Shown here: one piece after another, positions 15,678 through 40,551 of the stretch
Layout of the letters: each line of letters begins with the position of its first letter
How positions within the stretch are numbered: the stretch's first letter is position 1
From: an uncultured Thermoleophilaceae bacterium
GTDB lineage: Bacteria > Actinomycetota > Thermoleophilia > Solirubrobacterales > JACPNS01
Assembly (NCBI GenBank): GCA_964455545.1
Contig: CAYVWQ010000002.1
Coordinates: 138,596 to 202,595 of the forward strand
Direction of reading: 5' to 3'
DNA: 64,000 bases
Program-made: the position numbers and the translations under genes
Notes under the pieces: model-generated
Told to the model about the DNA's origin: nothing
The model's database searches: none
Seen by the model: only the letters and a program-made list of their open reading frames with translations

Positions 15678-18545
15678 TCAGCCGCAGCCGGTGTTGTTGC
15701 CGCAGCTCGAGCAGGTGTAGCAAGAGCCGGTGCGCTGCATCATGCCTCCGCACTGCTGGCAGGCCGGGCCAAGCTCGATGCCGGACAGCTTCGCCGGGGC
15801 GGCAGTCGGCTGGTCGGGGACCAAGGCGTCGGCTGCCGGTTTGGCGGCCTCGACCTTCTTGATCTCAATCGCCGGGATCGCAGTGTCGCCGCGCAGCTCC
15901 ATGCCGGCCTCTTCGCCCATCTTCTTGGCGCGGACGGCCTCGGTCATGATGCCGAGCTCTTCCTGGATGTCCGCTTCGCAGTAACGCGAGGCGAGCCAGC
16001 GCATGATGTAGTCGGGCATCGACTTCGCGAACGGGATCTCCTTGTTCTGCGTCATGCCCTCGGGCTCGAAGCGCATGTAGGAGAACTTGTCGACGAAGGT
16101 CTCGATCGGCACGCCGTACTGGAGGCCGACGGAGATGGCCGTCGCGAACGCGTTCATCATGCCGCGCATCGTCGAGCCTTCCTTGCCGATGTCGGTGAGG
16201 AAGATCTCGCCGACGGTGCCGTCCTCGTACTCACCGGCGGTGATGTAACCCTCGTTGCCGGCGATCGAGAACTTGTGGGTGCGCGACTGGCGCTCGACCG
16301 GCATGCGGCGACGGTTCGGCTTGTTGCCTGCCTCGGCCGCGCCTTCGGCCTTGGCCGTCTCGAGTGCCTTCGCGAAGTCCTCTTCGCTCATCCGGACTTC
16401 GCCTTCAGCCGGCTCATCCTCCTGGGCGTCTGTGCGTAGGGCCTGCGCGGTCTTCGAGCCGTCGCGGTAGATCGCGAGCGCCTTCAGGCCGTACTCCCAG
16501 CCCTTGATGTAGGCGTCGGCGATGTCCTCGATCGTGGCCGTGTTCGGCATGTTCACGGTCTTGGAAATCGCGCCCGAGAGGAACGGCTGGGCCGCGGCCA
16601 TCATCTTGATGTGGCCCATGTGGCTGATCGCGCGCTCACCGACTGCGACGTCGAAGACGTCGAGGTCCTCGGCCTTGAGGCCCGGAGCGTCGACGATCGT
16701 GCCGTTCTCGGCGATGTACGCCTCGATCTGGTCGATCACGGCCTGGTCGTAGCCGAGCGTCTGCAGCGCCAGCGGCACCGTGCGGTTGACGATCGTCATG
16801 TTGCCGCCGCCGACGAGCTCCTTGAACTTGACCAGCGAGAAGTCCGGCTCGATACCGGTCGTGTCGCAGTCCATCAGGAAGGAGATCGTGCCGGTCGGGG
16901 CGAGCACCGTGGCCTGCGCGTTGCGGTAGCCGTGCTGGGCGCCGAACTCGACCGCCTCGTCCCAAGAGCGACGCGCGGCTGCGAGCAGCTCGCCGTCCTC
17001 GAGGGCGTCCGCCGGGATCTCGTAGGCAGCGTCGCGGTGCATGCGCATCACGTTCATCTGCGGCTCGGCGTTCTCCGGGTACTTCTCGTGGACGCCGATC
17101 GCCTCGGCGATCAGTGCCGACTGGCGGTACGCGCGGCCGGTCATCAGAGCGGTGATCGCGGCGGCGTCGGCGCGACCGCGGTCCGAGTCGTAGGGAAGGC
17201 CGTTGCTCATCAGCAGGGCGCCGAGGTTGGCGTAGCCGAGGCCGAGCTGGCGGAACGCGCGCGCGTTGTCGCCGATCTTCTCGGTCGGGTAGCTCGACGG
17301 GCCGACGACGATCTCCTGCGCGAGGAGGACGATGTCGATCGCGTGCTCGTACTGCGCCGTGTCGAAGCTGCCGTCCGGGCGACGGAACTTCATCAGGTTG
17401 AGCGAAGCGAGGTTGCAGGCCGAGTCATCGACGTGCATGTACTCGGAGCACGGGTTGGACGCGTTGATGCGGCCGCTGTTGGGCGACGTGTGCCAACGGT
17501 TGATGATCGTGTCGTACTGGATGCCGGGGTCGGCGCAGCGCCAGGCGGCCTCGGCGATCTCGGCCATCAGCTCGCGCGCGTCCATCTCTTCGACGACCGT
17601 GCCGTCGACGCGCGAGACCGTCGCCCAGGTGTCACCGGCGGCGACCGCCTGCATGAACTCATCGGAGACGCGCACCGAGTTGTTGGCGTTCTGGTACTGG
17701 ATCGAGGTGAAGCCGTCGCCGTCGATCGACATGTCGAACCCGGCGTCGCGCAGGGCCGCGGCCTTGTCTTCTTCCTTGGCCTTGCACCAGATGAAGTCGC
17801 GGATGTCCGGGTGGTCGACGTCGAGCACGACCATCTTCGCCGCACGGCGCGTCTTGCCGCCGGACTTGATCGTGCCGGCCCACGCGTCGGTGCCGCGCAT
17901 GAAGGAGACCGGGCCGGAGGCGGTGCCGCCCTTGCCGAGGTGCTCCATCGAGCCGCGGATGTTCGAGAGGTTGATGCCCGAGCCGGAGCCGCCGCGGAAG
18001 ATCTGGCCTTCCTGCGTGTTCCAGTCGAGGATCGACTCCATCGTGTCCTGCACGGAGAGGATGAAGCAGGCCGAGCACTGCGGGCGCTCTTCAAAACCGA
18101 CGTTGAACCAGACGGGAGAGTTGAAGGCGGCGACCTGGTGGAGGAGGATGTGGGTCAGCTCGTCTTCGAAAGCGTTGCCGTCTTCGTCGCTGGCGAAGTA
18201 GCCCAGCTCACGGCCCCAGTTACTGATCGTGCCGGCGACGCGGCCGATCATCTGCTTGACGGAGTTCTCACGCTGGTCGGTGCCCAGCTGTCCGCGGAAG
18301 TACTTCTGCGAAACGATGTTGGTGGCGTTCTGGCTCCAGGACTTCGGGAACTCGACGCCGCGCTGCTCGAACGCGGGCTTCTCGGGATTGCCGATCACCG
18401 CGTCGCGGATCTCCCATTCGATCGCGTCGAACGGGTGGACGCCGGCTTCTGTGTAGCGGCGGTTGATCTTCAGGCCCTGGCCGTGGCCTTCAAGCGTGAA
18501 GCCTGCAGCTGGCGCTGCGCCTGTGAGAACTTCCGGTGGGTTCAT
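15678..18545 (-). CDS. nrdJ: Class II (adenosylcobalamin-dependent) ribonucleoside-diphosphate/triphosphate reductase
   Basis: 955 aa. Motifs: NATNIVSQKYFRG, the active-site region ASNPCSEYMHVDDSACNLASLNL, and a C-terminal Cys cluster CQQCGGMMQRTGSCYTCSSCG. A strong SD (GGAGGAGGAGAGG) precedes the ATG. Confidence 0.9.
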   Translation of the reverse strand: MNPPEVLTGAAPAAGFTLEGHGQGLKINRRYTEAGVHPFDAIEWEIRDAVIGNPEKPAFEQRGVEFPKSWSQNATNIVSQKYFRGQLGTDQRENSVKQMIGRVAGTISNWGRELGYFASDEDGNAFEDELTHILLHQVAAFNSPVWFNVGFEERPQCSACFILSVQDTMESILDWNTQEGQIFRGGSGSGINLSNIRGSMEHLGKGGTASGPVSFMRGTDAWAGTIKSGGKTRRAAKMVVLDVDHPDIRDFIWCKAKEEDKAAALRDAGFDMSIDGDGFTSIQYQNANNSVRVSDEFMQAVAAGDTWATVSRVDGTVVEEMDARELMAEIAEAAWRCADPGIQYDTIINRWHTSPNSGRINASNPCSEYMHVDDSACNLASLNLMKFRRPDGSFDTAQYEHAIDIVLLAQEIVVGPSSYPTEKIGDNARAFRQLGLGYANLGALLMSNGLPYDSDRGRADAAAITALMTGRAYRQSALIAEAIGVHEKYPENAEPQMNVMRMHRDAAYEIPADALEDGELLAAARRSWDEAVEFGAQHGYRNAQATVLAPTGTISFLMDCDTTGIEPDFSLVKFKELVGGGNMTIVNRTVPLALQTLGYDQAVIDQIEAYIAENGTIVDAPGLKAEDLDVFDVAVGERAISHMGHIKMMAAAQPFLSGAISKTVNMPNTATIEDIADAYIKGWEYGLKALAIYRDGSKTAQALRTDAQEDEPAEGEVRMSEEDFAKALETAKAEGAAEAGNKPNRRRMPVERQSRTHKFSIAGNEGYITAGEYEDGTVGEIFLTDIGKEGSTMRGMMNAFATAISVGLQYGVPIETFVDKFSYMRFEPEGMTQNKEIPFAKSMPDYIMRWLASRYCEADIQEELGIMTEAVRAKKMGEEAGMELRGDTAIPAIEIKKVEAAKPAADALVPDQPTAAPAKLSGIELGPACQQCGGMMQRTGSCYTCSSCGNNTGCG

Positions 18546-18710
18546 CTTCCTCTCCTCCTCCTATGCCGTTGAAACGGCTGAGTGCGGCGGCCTTGCCTCG
18601 TCTGGGCTCCGCCGCAAAACAAATTGCATACTGGGAACACCCGCCGGACCGCCTGCGCTTCGCTCGAAGAACAAGGCGCTGAAGCCCTGTTTTTCGCCAT
18701 TTTGCGAAGT

Positions 18711-18736
18711 GAGTTACCGCCCTTAGGGGGTAACTC
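18711..18736. promoter_or_regulatory. Near-perfect 26-nt palindrome/hairpin in the nrdJ upstream region
   Basis: GAGTTACC gCCCttaGGGg GGTAACTC, about 165-190 nt upstream of the nrdJ ATG. Confidence 0.35.
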
Positions 18737-18952
18737 GACAAACAATCACTTGGCTCGGACGGAAACTCTTGGGAGGAACCGCCAGACCCGCCGAGAATCC
18801 CATCTGGTTCTCAACACATTTTAGGCCGTAAGCCCGCTCTGGGAGCCGGTTTCAGCCTGCAAAAGACGCTATTTGCGGGGGGCGGAGCCGAACCGGAAAA
18901 CTCGCGATTTGCGAAGTCCCACGCGCCAAAATCGACCAATTTCCGGCTCAAG

Positions 18953-19107
18953 CCGCTCCTCCTCGCGAAATCCTGAGGAGCAACCGCTACTCCTCACGAA
19001 ATCCCTAAGAGCAACCGCTCCTCCTCGCGAAATCCTGAGGAGCAACCGCGCCTCCTCCGGAAAACGCGAGGAGCGACGGCTCTTCCTCACGAAATCCTGA
19101 GGAAGCC
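18953..19107. repeat. Five head-to-tail 31-bp tandem repeats, each with an internal CTCCTC/GAGGAG inverted repeat
   Basis: Units start at 18953, 18984, 19015, 19046 and 19077. Units 1 and 3 are identical (CCGCTCCTCCTCGCGAAATCCTGAGGAGCAA). A 31-bp period is not a multiple of 3. The array is intergenic, 50 nt upstream of ATG 19158. Confidence 0.9.
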
Positions 19108-19157
19108 CAGGTTGCGGGGCGGCGGAATGCGGGATCGGGTGGCGAATCACGTTTCTG

Positions 19158-20390
19158 ATGTTCGGCCGCAAGCCCAAACCTGAGAAGACGCCGGAAGAAC
19201 TCGACGCGGAGCGCGTCGAGACGGCCGAGTACGAGGCGCTCGAAAAGGCCGAGCCTTCGCGCTACTGGTTCTGGGTGCTCGTGATCGCGATGCTCGGCCT
19301 GGCCGGGCGGCTCGCGTTCTTCGCCAAGTTCGGCCACGAGATCGCCTACGAGAAGACCGGCGCATTGACGAACACGTTCGCACCCGGCTACGGCCAACTG
19401 ATGCACCTGATCGACAGCGGCAGCAGCAGCGACCCGCGTCTGATCGCCGAAACCCTCTGGGTCCTTCAGTCCGGGATGATCGTCCTCGCGACGCTGATGG
19501 TCTTCGCGCTCGGCCGGCGCGTCATCTTCGGCCCTGCCGAACTCGTCCCGCCGATCCTGCTCAATCTCTCGATCGCCGGCGTCGACCTGGTCGGCGAGGT
19601 GGCGCCGGTCATTCCGGCGATGTTCTTCCTCACGACCGGAGTCTGGTTGGCGACGATGCTGCGCGAGCGTCCGCCGGCGGATCGCTCCACGACCTCGGTC
19701 CTGCTCGCGCTCGGCGCCGGCCTCAGCGTCGGCCTCAGCGTTCTCTTCAGTCCGGCCATCGCGATCGCGGCGGTCTTCATCGCCTGGTGGTCATTCCGCG
19801 GACTCACGCGCGAATTCGCTGTGCTTTTCCTAGTCGCGATCCTGATCCTTCCCGCCAGCTGGTACGCCACTCACCTGACGAACAGCAGCGGCGTCACGGT
19901 CAGCGACGCGACCGACTGGGTCTCCGACAACTCCGTCAAAGACGGCCCCGACGCGCTCGAACACGCCTACGCGGTCGGCACCACCTGGAACCCGCGCTTC
20001 GCCCGCGGCGCGTACGCAAGTACCGACTGGAATTACGAGTGGATCATTCCGAAAGCGACGCGCCAAGACACGAGCTACATCAGCTCAACCCGGATCGCCG
20101 CGGGCATCTTCATGGTCGCCTATGCGCTGCTGGTGATTGCCGGAGTCGCGTCGCTCTTTCTCGAACTCGCCGGTTCCGAAGCGCGTCTTCTGGCGATTCC
20201 GATCGTCACGGTGCCGCTGATCACCTTTCTGACCCAGGAGGGAAATGCGCTGCGCATCCTGATCCTGCCGTTTCTCGCCATATCCCTCACTTTGGGCGGC
20301 ATCCTGGCTACCGAAGCGCTACGCAGCGGAAAATCCGCCGGTCGGCCCGACATGGACAAAGATTCGAATTTTCGGCCAACTGGCCAGTAA
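19158..20390 (+). CDS. Polytopic membrane protein (possible GT-C/PMT-like), charged cytoplasmic N-terminus
   Basis: 410-aa ORF with ~10 hydrophobic segments. It begins MFGRKPKPEKTPEELDAERVETAEYEALEK. No family motif was recognised. Confidence 0.6.
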   Translation: MFGRKPKPEKTPEELDAERVETAEYEALEKAEPSRYWFWVLVIAMLGLAGRLAFFAKFGHEIAYEKTGALTNTFAPGYGQLMHLIDSGSSSDPRLIAETLWVLQSGMIVLATLMVFALGRRVIFGPAELVPPILLNLSIAGVDLVGEVAPVIPAMFFLTTGVWLATMLRERPPADRSTTSVLLALGAGLSVGLSVLFSPAIAIAAVFIAWWSFRGLTREFAVLFLVAILILPASWYATHLTNSSGVTVSDATDWVSDNSVKDGPDALEHAYAVGTTWNPRFARGAYASTDWNYEWIIPKATRQDTSYISSTRIAAGIFMVAYALLVIAGVASLFLELAGSEARLLAIPIVTVPLITFLTQEGNALRILILPFLAISLTLGGILATEALRSGKSAGRPDMDKDSNFRPTGQ

Positions 20391-23208: not shown

Positions 23209-26200
23209 ATGCGACGCGCTCTCGGCGGCCTCGCATGCGCGGGGAAGCCTGCGTACGCGTGCTCAAACAACATTTTCCTCCTCCGCGGACACTCGGCTCG
23301 ACTGGCTCTGGCGATCCTGATCGCGGCTTTCACCACGTGTCTGATCGCAGGGTCGGCCGGTGCCGCCGTCTTCCAGGACAACGGCAGCCGGGACGACTCG
23401 GCGTTCGCCGGATTCGGTCAGGTCTACACGGAAGGGACCGACGGCATCGGCAAGTACGTCTGGGTCGTCGACCACCGCGACGGTGAGGACGTGCTGCGTG
23501 GCTTCGACCAGTCGAACCCGGCGCTGTCGACCCAGACGGGCATCCTCAACGGAAATGAAGACGTCGGTCCGGGACCGATCAGCTCGATCTCCGCGGCGGC
23601 TTTTTCGCCGCTCCACAGCCTTCTTTTTGTCGCCGACGACGGAGACGATCGCCTGATCGCGTATCCGCGCTCGAACACGATGCCGTGGGCGCCGATCGAC
23701 TACATGAACGCGATCGAGATATCGAGCTTCTCGCCGGTGTCGTTCCCGGTCGACAACCCGCGCGGGTTGGCGATCGACCCGCGCGGCTCTGAGAGGGGCT
23801 ACATGTCGTTGACCAACGAGAGCGGTTACCGCGGAATTCTTCAGTTCGCGACTGCGCCGAACGGCTCTTCCTTCTCGTGGATCCGGTTCACGTACATACC
23901 CGGAGCATGGGGCGGCGCAAATGGGCCGGGAGCGATGACGGTCGATCCGTCGAACGGAAACGTCTACGTGGCGATGGACGGCCTGAACCAGATTCAGGGA
24001 TACACCCCGGACATCGACAACGTCGCCGGCACGTTCCACTCGAGTACGTTGGGCGACTACGTCGGCGTCAGCGTCGACCGGCCGGGCAACCGTCTGTTTG
24101 GGGTCAAGACCGATTCGGTGGATGTCTTCGACCTGACGACTGCGAAGCTGCTCGGAACCCTTTGGGACAACGAGTTTGAACAGAACACCGGCTTCGCAGG
24201 GCTGCCGGGCACAACGAACTACTTCCTCGCCAGTGACGAGGCGCCGCACGTGAGAAACCTCGTGACCGGCAGCGCGCCGACCTGCACGCCCGGCCCGGCG
24301 GTCCAGGTCACCTACCAGTCAAGCAAGGAAATCACGCCCGACTGCACCGATCCCGACGGCTCGACGATCAGGCAGTTCTCGATCGTGAGTCCGCCCGCGC
24401 GGGGCACCGCAACGCCGACCAGCGGCGGCCAGTCGATCGGATACACCGCCGGAGCGGAGCAGCTCGGCGCCGACCAGCTGAGCTACACGGTCACCACGCA
24501 GGACGGCATCAGCGCGACGTACACCCAGGACATCGAGATCGTCGAACCGGACACGACGCCGCCGACGGTGACGATCACCTCTCCGAGCGACGGACTGCTG
24601 ACCACGGTCGGCGAGACGACGGTCCACTACACCGTCGCCGACGACCGGGACGAGACACCTGAATGCGACGTCGAGGATGGCGCGACGGCCGGCCTCGAGG
24701 TTGGCGCCACAACGCTCTCAGTGAGTTGCACCGACGACGCCGGCAACACCGGCTCGGATTCCGTGACGGTTTACTTCGACGCTTCGCCGCCGACGGTCGA
24801 GATCACCTGGCCGTGGTTCGACGGATGGGTCGTCAACTGGGACACGGTCGAAATTGAATACAGCGTCAACGATGACGTCGACAACTCCCCCGAGTGCGAC
24901 TACCCGAGCGGCGCCAGCTTCCCGATCGAGCACGGTTCGAACACCTTCACGATCAGCTGCACGGACGACGCCGGTCGGACCGGCACCGACTCGGTGACCC
25001 TGATCGGGGACCAGTCACCGCCGGAGATAACCGTGACTTCGCCGGCTGACGGAGCGGCCGTGACCGCCTCGACGCTTTACGTGGATTACGTCGTTTCCGA
25101 CGATCTCGCGACCGAGCCGTACTGCGCGGTCTACAACGACACCACCTATGACGGAGGCGAAGGCGAAGGTGAGGGACCGCCGACCGACGCTCACGAGGTT
25201 GAGCTGGTCCCTGGACTTAACGAGATCGCGGTCTACTGCAGCGACGACGCCGGCAACTCGTCGGAGGTGCCATTCGACGTCTTCTACGACACTGATGACC
25301 CGACCGTCTCAATCACCGCACCGACCGAAGGCGCACTCGTCACGACGTCGAGCATCCCGGTCGCCTTCACCGCGACCGACGACACCGATACCTCGCCGTC
25401 CTGCAACATCACCAGCGGCCAGTCGGTATCGCTGACGCCCGGTGCCAACACGATCACGGTCACCTGCACCGACGACGCCGGCCGCTCGGGCAGCGCCAGC
25501 GTTCACGTCACCTACGACGCCACCGCGCCGACCGTCTCAATCACCGCACCGACCGAAGGCGCACTCGTCACCACGCCGAGCATCCCGGTCACCTTCACGG
25601 CGACCGACGACACCGACGCCTCGCCCTCCTGCGATCTCACCAGCGGCCAGTCAGTATCGCTGACGCCCGGCGCCAACACGATCACCGTCACCTGCACCGA
25701 CGACGGCGGCCGTTCGGGCAGCGCGAGCGTTCACGTCACCTACGACGCGACGGCGCCGGAGGTGGAGATCACAGCTCCGGCGGACGGCTCGCTGGTCACC
25801 GCGCCGGCGGTCGACCTGACCTTCACCGTTTCCGACGACACCGACTCGGAGCCGACCTGCGACCACGCCGCCTCAAGCACCGCGAACCTCAGCCCCGGCC
25901 CGAACACGATCACCGTGACTTGCACCGACGCGGCCGGCCGGACCGGCAGCGACTCGGTCGACGTCGTCTACGACGCGTCCGCCCCGACGGTCGAGATCAC
26001 TGCACCCACAGACGGCCTGCTCGTCACCGACCCCGAGATCGCGGTCGACTACTCGGTCTCGGACGACGGAGAGGTCGCGCCCGACTGCGACATCGCTCCG
26101 GGATCCCTGGTCACGCTCTCCCCGGGTGAGAACACGATCACGGTCACCTGCACTGACTCGGCCGGCCACGCCGGTTCCGCATCGACTCACGTCACCTACG

Positions 26201-40478: not shown

Positions 40479-40551
40479 GCCGACGTAGCTCAGTTGGTAG
40501 AGCACTTCACTCGTAATGAAGGGGTCCCCGGTTCGAATCCGGGCGTCGGCT
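40479..40551 (+). tRNA. tRNA-Thr (anticodon CGT)
   Basis: Hand-folded cloverleaf: acceptor GCCGACG/CGTCGGC, D arm GCTC-AGTTGGTA-GAGC, anticodon arm CTTCA-CTCGTAA-TGAAG, T arm CCCGG-TTCGAAT-CCGGG. 73 nt. CCA is not encoded. Confidence 0.9.

Follow-up and report, generated by a model that had tools for sequence, protein, structure and literature searches.

A locus-specific minisatellite of palindromic 31-bp units between nrdJ and a divergent membrane-protein gene in an uncultured Thermoleophilia bacterium

Five head-to-tail units of 31 bp, each of them palindromic, occupy positions 18953-19107 of the 64,000-nucleotide stretch of DNA analysed here (the window), between nrdJ and a membrane-protein gene that points the other way; the array is non-coding. 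It is well supported as a lineage-restricted, copy-number-variable minisatellite of 31-32-bp palindromic (stem-loop) units, and equally well supported is its place of insertion, flanked by a conserved (C/T)AATTTCCG motif and by the start codon of the gene for a GT-C-like protein. As a whole, we tentatively read it as a locus-specific stem-loop minisatellite, expanded by slippage or template switching, that lies in leader or promoter-proximal DNA and tunes the GT-C-like gene. On the same tentative footing, it would be an accessory repeat, and neither a riboswitch nor a part of nrdJ regulation.

The array, its units and its neighbours are arranged as follows.

15678-18545, minus strand: nrdJ, class II B12-dependent ribonucleotide reductase, divergent from the gene downstream of the array
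18937-18945, plus strand: motif CAATTTCCG, directly 5' of the array and conserved in the array-bearing and clade-B loci
18953-18983: unit 1, CCGCTCCTCCTCGCGAAATCCTGAGGAGCAA; stem GCTCCTC/GAGGAGC, or CTCCTC/GAGGAG with a 10-nt loop
18984-19014: unit 2, degenerate, with mismatches at several places in the stem
19015-19045: unit 3, identical to unit 1
19046-19076: unit 4, with the loop variant CGGAAAACGC and a stem lengthened by CG/CG
19077-19107: unit 5, with arms CTTCCTCA..TGAGGAAGCC, the form common to the relatives L083 and L087
19158-20390, plus strand: the downstream gene, encoding a 410-aa polytopic membrane protein with no Pfam domain; ATG without a Shine-Dalgarno (SD) sequence

The initial annotation, made from the letters of the window, gave the distances correctly: 50 nt from the end of the array to the ATG at 19158, and 408 nt from its start to position 18545, where the start codon of nrdJ lies on the minus strand. 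Its description of five 31-bp units, the first and third of them identical, is likewise confirmed by TRF, by a repeat search and by pairwise identity. TRF reports a single array at 18953-19103, with a period of 31, 4.9 copies, 79% matches, no indels and a score of 197, and a super-period of 62 bp also fits, at 86%. The repeat search places the unit register at 18953, 18984, 19015 and 19046, with the fifth unit at 19077. Units 1 and 3 agree at 31/31 bases and the remaining pairs at 19-26/31. With up to three mismatches allowed, the 22-nt core CTCCTCNCGAAATCCTGAGGAG has four matches, all within the array, where shuffled sequences lead one to expect 0.01. A contig of an independent Logan assembly (L001), which ends inside the array, has the same last three units, so the array sequence is real; the count of five units rests on the window's own assembly. 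A coding repeat, already thought unlikely in the initial annotation, is ruled out: the period is 31 or 32, and the ORFs that overlap the array, at 18873-19100 on the plus strand and 18869-19177 on the minus strand, have no Pfam match and are not conserved.

Each unit holds an imperfect palindrome of the type GCTCCTC..GAGGAGC, which in unit 5 becomes CTTCCTCA..TGAGGAAG; written out, unit 5 is CTTCCTCAcGA-AA-TCcTGAGGAAG, with 11-nt arms that are 91% complementary. The description of each unit as a hairpin or palindrome thus stands, since inverted repeats are found and the predicted fold of the array is better than that of shuffled sequences on both strands (-83.8 kcal/mol and z -4.9 on the plus strand; -105.2 kcal/mol and z -5.9 on the minus strand). 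As RNA, the hairpin of unit 1 is predicted at -11.2 kcal/mol on the plus strand and -12.2 on the minus strand, and unit 2, which barely folds on the plus strand (-0.9 kcal/mol), reaches -6.7 on the minus strand. Eight of 12 units, as well as the whole array, fold better as minus-strand RNA, a lean that is confounded by the C-rich plus strand (38% C and 23% G in the array) and by the non-independence of copied units. The stem cells that are not Watson-Crick are C.A or A.C in five cases and G.T in one; a C.A becomes G.U on the minus strand. A covariance model, R1, was built from the 12 units of four lineages and run on the window with filters off; it scores the units of the window at 26-36 bits each, with unit 5 at the top (36.4 bits).

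Among related soil actinobacteria, about 12 lineages, found through homologues of both proteins, share the arrangement of nrdJ and the membrane-protein gene, and four of them have the array, with 5, 2, 3 and 3 units; the copy numbers in the relatives come from short-read contigs, in which identical units could be collapsed. TRF describes the four arrays as follows.

Window: period 31 bp, 4.9 copies
L082 (membrane protein 96% identical): period 31 bp, 1.9 copies
L083 (membrane protein 67% identical): period 31 bp, 3.0 copies
L087 (membrane protein 42% identical): period 32 bp, 2.5 copies plus one inverted unit

By TRF, there is no such array in the homologous intergenic regions of L089, L163, L164, L167, L168 and L169, and R1 finds no unit in L167-L174; at least eight lineages have the same gene without the array. 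The initial annotation had named absence or high variability in close relatives as a finding that would tell against it, and this is what is seen (5/2/3/3/0/0/0 copies). In the alignment of these loci (A1), the array appears as an insertion relative to the array-less loci, and the nrdJ-proximal ~330 nt are conserved in all of them. The neighbouring protein P0003, which comes with the array, has 83% identity with P0004 and 74% with P0005, both of which come without it, and the presence of the array therefore does not follow phylogeny. Around the array lies a hypervariable island (18880-19157), with 28-68% identity to L082 between flanks that are 94-100% identical. L082 and L087/L088, whose run accessions fall in one numerical block (SRR249058xx), have a common loop and 3' flank. 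Horizontal transfer of a cassette into the L087 lineage was considered and is suggestive only, the TTGCGGG flank being found also in the array-less L089.

The consensus unit is GGCTTCCTCA-N8-9-TGAGGAAGCC, with a spacer of 8 or 9 nt and a period of 31-32 bp. The arms in the relatives are either GGCTTCCTCA/TGAGGAAGCC or GGCTTCCGC/GCGGAAGCC, and those of L082 read GCGGAAG/CUUCCGC as RNA. They are conserved across L083, L087 and unit 5 of the window and differ in units 1-4 and in L082; the GGCTTCCTCA/TGAGGAAGCC arms do not differ even between lineages in which the neighbouring proteins have only about 42% identity. Across the 10-bp stem, 83% of the cells are paired, against 36-54% when the partners are slid. 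Two stem pairs are changed on both sides among the 12 units, U-A to or from C-G in units 1, 3 and 4 of the window and U-A to or from G-C in both units of L082, and 1 shuffle in 500 gives a covariation score as high. The loops vary (ACGAAATCCT, CGGAAAACGC, CGAAAAACGT, GGATTTCTC and CGCGGCGCGT), and the first unit of L087 scores better on the opposite strand (42 against 38 bits), with a loop that is the reverse complement of the usual one. In other words, symmetry is kept, loop sequence and orientation are not, and structure appears to outweigh loop sequence. Such a pattern agrees with an element that forms a structure, as RNA or as single-stranded DNA, and also with palindromes that are held symmetric by hairpin-templated mutation. 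Quasi-palindrome template switching is an established mutational mechanism by which symmetric arm changes can arise with no need for selection.

Searches for further copies were made at several scales. In the 64-kb window, R1 finds nothing beyond the five units (the next match has 11.5 bits and an E-value of 0.86), and in the related loci (715 kb and a further 52 kb) it finds no unit outside the homologous site. A dispersed REP-like element was rejected on these results, and the alternative raised in the initial annotation, that the array is one copy of a widespread minisatellite, is not borne out in the window and the related loci searched. Metagenome contigs of 40-71% GC contain the exact consensus hairpin, GCTTCCTCA-N7-11-TGAGGAAGCC, 71 times, always as an isolated single in an unrelated context and never in tandem, and viral contigs contain it twice. 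BLAST against plasmid and phage collections gave no match to the array. The nrdJ sequence places the organism of the window in the Solirubrobacterales (Thermoleophilia), and the nrdJ genes of the 80 closest GTDB genomes do not exceed 76-78% amino-acid identity in the segment matched; none of these 80 Solirubrobacterales nrdJ loci has a unit. The repeats that TRF finds upstream of the GTDB nrdJ genes are of unrelated sequence and, because many have a period of 33 bp or another multiple of 3, were read as coding. A search of the literature on similar arrays found nothing relevant.

No known riboswitch had been recognised from the letters alone, and Rfam agrees, at gathering and at permissive thresholds, for the window and its relatives. 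At the gathering threshold, nothing in the whole window matches the array, and the sole match is a tRNA gene at 40479-40551; at E<=10 over 18300-19400 there is only noise, the best being a model of a plant miRNA, with 23.9 of 90 bits. Six related loci gave no credible match either. A known cis-regulatory RNA was therefore rejected, the array being also absent before the same gene in L089 and L163-L174. A CRISPR array was rejected too, since the units abut and have no spacers.

The gene downstream belongs to a very rare family, with 19 matches among 1.8 billion representative proteins. Its most distant members carry PMT_2, and the sequences point to a protein that is probably a divergent GT-C glycosyltransferase, distantly related to PMT_2; the AlphaFold model (pLDDT 53) is not good enough to be used in a fold search. 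At the ATG of the gene, a TGATG stop/start overlap (19156-19160) is kept in L082 and L083; no start codon is found in the upstream frame between the array and the TGA of this TGATG, so that no coupled upstream ORF is evident. In other lineages, one or two genes with a prepilin N-terminal methylation domain (PF07963) lie between nrdJ and the membrane-protein gene (L168, 1978-2466; L169/L170/L171, 1072-2345; L172, 1268-2562), and these neighbours suggest that the GT-C-like protein may act on pilin-like proteins. Further along the window, a 228-bp tandem repeat (25300-26037; 2-3.2 copies, 79-92% matches) lies in a long ORF, the one called at 5030-7150 in L082, and at 76 codons per unit it is probably a repeated protein domain.

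Two further short elements were observed in the intergenic regions of relatives. One is a short hairpin motif, GTCCATGGGGT-N4-5-ACCCCAnnGTCAAG, which has no Rfam match and is conserved before each pilin-like gene and, in L173, before the membrane-protein gene; it roughly occupies the place that the array has in the window.

L168, about 1687-1712: GTCCATGGGGT-N4-5-ACCCCAnnGTCAAG
L169, about 929-957 and about 1695-1722: GTCCATGGGGT-N4-5-ACCCCAnnGTCAAG
L173, about 2638-2665: GTCCATGGGGT-N4-5-ACCCCAnnGTCAAG

The other, seen in array-less lineages, is a G-rich/C-rich hairpin (e.g. GCGGG..CCCGC or GCCGCCGGG..CCCGGCGGC) followed by ACGGCGAAG, with the membrane-protein gene starting at a GTG 13-20 nt further on. 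The window retains only GGCGAA of it (19142-19147).

L164, about 1107-1135: G-rich/C-rich hairpin and ACGGCGAAG
L167, about 1390-1420: G-rich/C-rich hairpin and ACGGCGAAG
L169, about 2383-2412: G-rich/C-rich hairpin and ACGGCGAAG
L087, about 1279-1310: G-rich/C-rich hairpin and ACGGCGAAG

On the plus strand, the array begins 10 nt after a conserved CAATTT hexamer. The clade-B loci without the array keep the motif, as TAATTT in L163 and CAATTT in L164, where it stands 40-60 nt from the start codon. Since (C/T)AATTT is the only TANNNT-like hexamer found upstream of the membrane-protein gene in L163, it is taken as a candidate -10 of the plus-strand gene. A scan for sigma-70 promoters and terminators near the array gave no sites, and inspection by eye showed no TANNNT-like -10 for the minus strand on the right-hand side of the array. 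The motif overlaps a same-strand cluster of direct words, ATTTGCG at 18871-18877 and 18907-18913 and ATTTCCG at 18939-18945, with a further occurrence at 18699-18707; the words TTTGCGAAGT, noted in the initial annotation as related to the array, are indeed present, at 18701 and 18908. Three of the nine ATTT(G/C)CG matches in the 64 kb fall within these 75 bp. The last two words are separated by 22 or 32 bp in relatives, distances that differ by one turn of the helix, and all three are possible candidates for protein-binding direct repeats in the divergent promoter region.

The initial annotation had also connected the array with nrdJ, and saw in each hairpin an SD-like GAGGAG paired with its anti-SD-like complement. 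Neither idea fares well. The ~265-nt nrdJ leader and its candidate -10 are conserved in every lineage examined, yet no more than 4 of about 12 have the array, which makes a part in the control of nrdJ unlikely. A TANNNT hexamer, TAAAAT at 18818-18823 on the minus strand, is kept in all ten aligned lineages (as TAGAAT or TAGACT in some) and is likely the -10 of nrdJ; it lies 130 bp downstream of the array in the minus-strand sense. The array is thus upstream of the probable promoter of nrdJ, and this speaks against a core role in its control. As to the SD reading, the arms of the relatives are weak or not SD-like, the consensus GAGGAAG being a poor SD, and the last hairpin, ending at 19107, stands 50 nt before a start codon, ATG 19158, that has no SD to sequester; an SD-sequestering RNA thermometer was rejected on these grounds, the SD-like arms not being conserved. 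The NrdR box is a 16-bp palindrome close to acaCwAtATaTwGtgt, of which two usually lie near the nrd promoter. It was rejected as well: the sequence of the unit does not resemble it, and there are relatives that have the same nrdJ leader and no array. In sum, the array is real, and its functional readings as a phased protein site or as an SD/anti-SD device for nrdJ are mostly not supported.

The nrdJ leader deserves a description in its own right.

18546-18815, minus strand: nrdJ leader, with a core that is near-invariant in 10 aligned lineages, GTGATTGWTTRTCGAGTTACCCSCT.A..GCGG, preceded by TTYCCGTCCGA
18562-18581: 20-nt insertion by the nrdJ SD region, TATGCCGTTGAAACGGCTGA, with the hairpin GCCGTT-GA-AACGGC
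18836-18846: conserved palindrome just upstream of the likely nrdJ -10, GCTCCAGGAGC in most aligned lineages and GCTCTGGGAGC in the window

The leader has no Rfam match, and RNAalifold gives two short helices only, with no compensatory changes. It was not found in the 80 GTDB Solirubrobacterales loci, and a metagenome scan for its core had no matches. It may represent either an uncharacterised leader element of nrdJ or an operator in the DNA. The TATGCCGTTGAAACGGCTGA insertion is absent from L082 (96% identical) and from all other lineages.

How might such an array have arisen, and what might it do? In our preferred reading, a hairpin-forming unit would have been duplicated head-to-tail by replication slippage or template switching, and with this origin the symmetric arm changes, the inversion of one unit and the fast turnover would be explained. 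Should (C/T)AATTT be the -10, the units would be transcribed as the first 150 nt of the leader of the plus-strand gene. The string of 5'-proximal stem-loops, predicted at -11 to -25 kcal/mol each, might then tune the amount of mRNA, by protecting the 5' end or by hindering RNA polymerase, with the copy number as an adjustable setting; this last step is the least certain. Against this reading stand the GGCTTCCTCA/TGAGGAAGCC arms, identical at about 42% protein identity, which a purely structural role does not predict, the better fold of most units as minus-strand RNA, and the promoter scan that gave no site at the proposed -10. The absence of the array from most relatives is equally compatible with no function.

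A functionless or selfish repeat, multiplied in place through hairpin slippage, template switching or an enzyme that recognises hairpins, and harmless and non-regulatory, is somewhat unlikely in our judgement, although much of the variation described above is what it would lead one to expect: the patchy occurrence in 4 of about 12 lineages with a gap in an 83%-identical sister, a copy number of 2 to 5, a decayed unit 2, an inverted unit and a hypervariable island, together with arm changes whose symmetry template switching alone can give. It accounts poorly for one insertion site and near-identical arms in distant lineages, which call for selection, horizontal exchange or a site-specific mechanism, and, unlike known selfish palindromes, the array is without a further copy in the 64 kb of the window and in related loci of about 770 kb. 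Those same conserved arms, with their variable spacer, would be natural in an operator array, that is, palindromic sites GGCTTCCTCA-N8-9-TGAGGAAGCC for a dimeric DNA-binding protein, spaced by about three helical turns on one face of the DNA. Orientation would then be irrelevant, as appears to be the case, the period of 31-32 bp and the position between divergent genes would be suitable, and half-site-like words, ATTT(G/C)CG and ATTTCCGCC, occur in all lineages at a spacing of 22 or 32 bp. We nevertheless regard operators as unlikely. The arms differ in a compensatory manner within the array and between sister strains (CTCCTC/GAGGAG, CTTCCTC/GAGGAAG and TTCCGC/GCGGAA), the spacer is 8 or 9, and the array insertions relative to the flanking conserved motifs (about 176 and 134 bp) are not whole helical turns; moreover, no other gene of the window has a similar site upstream, most relatives with the same genes have none, and no candidate regulator was found. 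A TetR gene lies two genes downstream and was rejected as the binder; it has a divergent intergenic region of its own, in which a motif search found no similar palindrome. A regulatory cassette that moves between lineages to one site, either as an operator array for a dimeric regulator of a pilin-associated glycosyltransferase locus or as a self-propagating hairpin element of a single locus that a dedicated enzyme recognises, would explain together the near-identical arms at about 42% identity, the difference between P0003 and its sister, and the hypervariable island; we consider it decidedly unlikely.

Two further possibilities look away from the plus-strand gene. The better fold on the minus strand (-105 against -84 kcal/mol), where C.A mismatches become G.U, would agree with an RNA directed toward nrdJ, a distal leader or a small RNA, whose CUCCUC/CUUCCUC arms could pair with the purine-rich nrdJ ribosome-binding site GGAGGAGGAGAGGAAG AUG, and in the window this site does contain GAGGAG and GAGGAAG. 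Such an RNA is very unlikely, for the array has no TANNNT-like -10 seen by eye to its right and lies upstream of the conserved nrdJ -10, the CUUCCGC arms of L082 mismatch its identical ribosome-binding site, and most lineages with the same nrdJ leader lack the array; the strand asymmetry may reflect only the C-rich plus strand. The palindromes might instead act as DNA, extruding as cruciforms under negative supercoiling between the divergent polymerases and so coupling or insulating the two promoters, with no dedicated protein. There are five near-perfect palindromes with 7-10-bp arms and 8-10-nt centres between divergent genes, and orientation would be irrelevant. Loops of 8-13 nt with short arms extrude poorly as cruciforms, the array has just such loops and arms, and most relatives do without it; this supercoil buffer is extremely unlikely.

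Among known systems, the array has both defining features of a bacterial VNTR or minisatellite, namely non-coding repeats arranged head-to-tail and a copy number that varies at the locus. Some promoter-proximal VNTRs affect expression. Like the MIRU-VNTRs, it consists of head-to-tail intergenic repeats of tens of bp in an actinobacterium, varies in copy number and is absent from some members; however, MIRUs are 40-100 bp long and dispersed over about 40 loci, mostly in operons, with small ORFs that overlap the flanking genes, whereas the array is found at a single locus between divergent genes, with palindromic units of 31-32 bp and no ORF, and is not a MIRU. With REP/BIME elements it shares imperfect palindromes of ~30 nt, conserved arms, a variable loop, clustering and occurrence in either orientation. 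REPs are present in tens to hundreds of dispersed copies, usually at gene 3' ends and with a RAYT transposase, but the array has no second copy in 64 kb or about 770 kb of related loci, and its units abut and are almost all direct.

The likeness to regulatory elements is more limited. The 5'-terminal stabilising stem-loops of E. coli ompA and of B. subtilis aprE and ermC are comparable, in position and in that structure counts for more than loop sequence, only if the inferred transcription start is right; those leaders have single, experimentally shown hairpins, whereas the array has 2-5 tandem copies of predicted ones. CIRCE resembles the units in having 9-10-bp arms with an 8-9-nt spacer, in lying between promoter and start codon, and in its possible action as both DNA and RNA. 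CIRCE itself, whose 9-bp inverted repeat has a 9-nt spacer and which HrcA binds, acts in the mRNA too and is strictly conserved wherever the regulon occurs, but the array is unrelated in sequence, varies and is mostly absent. Finally, the ToxI-like RNAs of type III toxin-antitoxin systems also have 2-5.5 tandem repeats of 30-45 nt directly upstream of a gene on the same strand; in the present case, however, the downstream gene encodes a 410-aa membrane protein that is not ToxN/AbiEii-like, and relatives keep this gene without the array.

The array is thus a new example of an ordinary kind of element, made mildly intriguing by the identical arms in distant lineages and by the hypervariable island. 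An annotation as conserved regulatory RNA should be avoided, and the array represents no new riboswitch, NrdR-type site or SD-sequestering device for nrdJ. The hypervariable island, set in an otherwise near-identical locus, offers a small example of the evolution of promoter-proximal repeats. Should the leader-hairpin reading be true, the relatives would provide a natural series of 0, 2, 3 and 5 stem-loops before the same gene, and this series could be used to relate the dosage of 5'-proximal hairpins to expression in Thermoleophilia, a poorly studied class.
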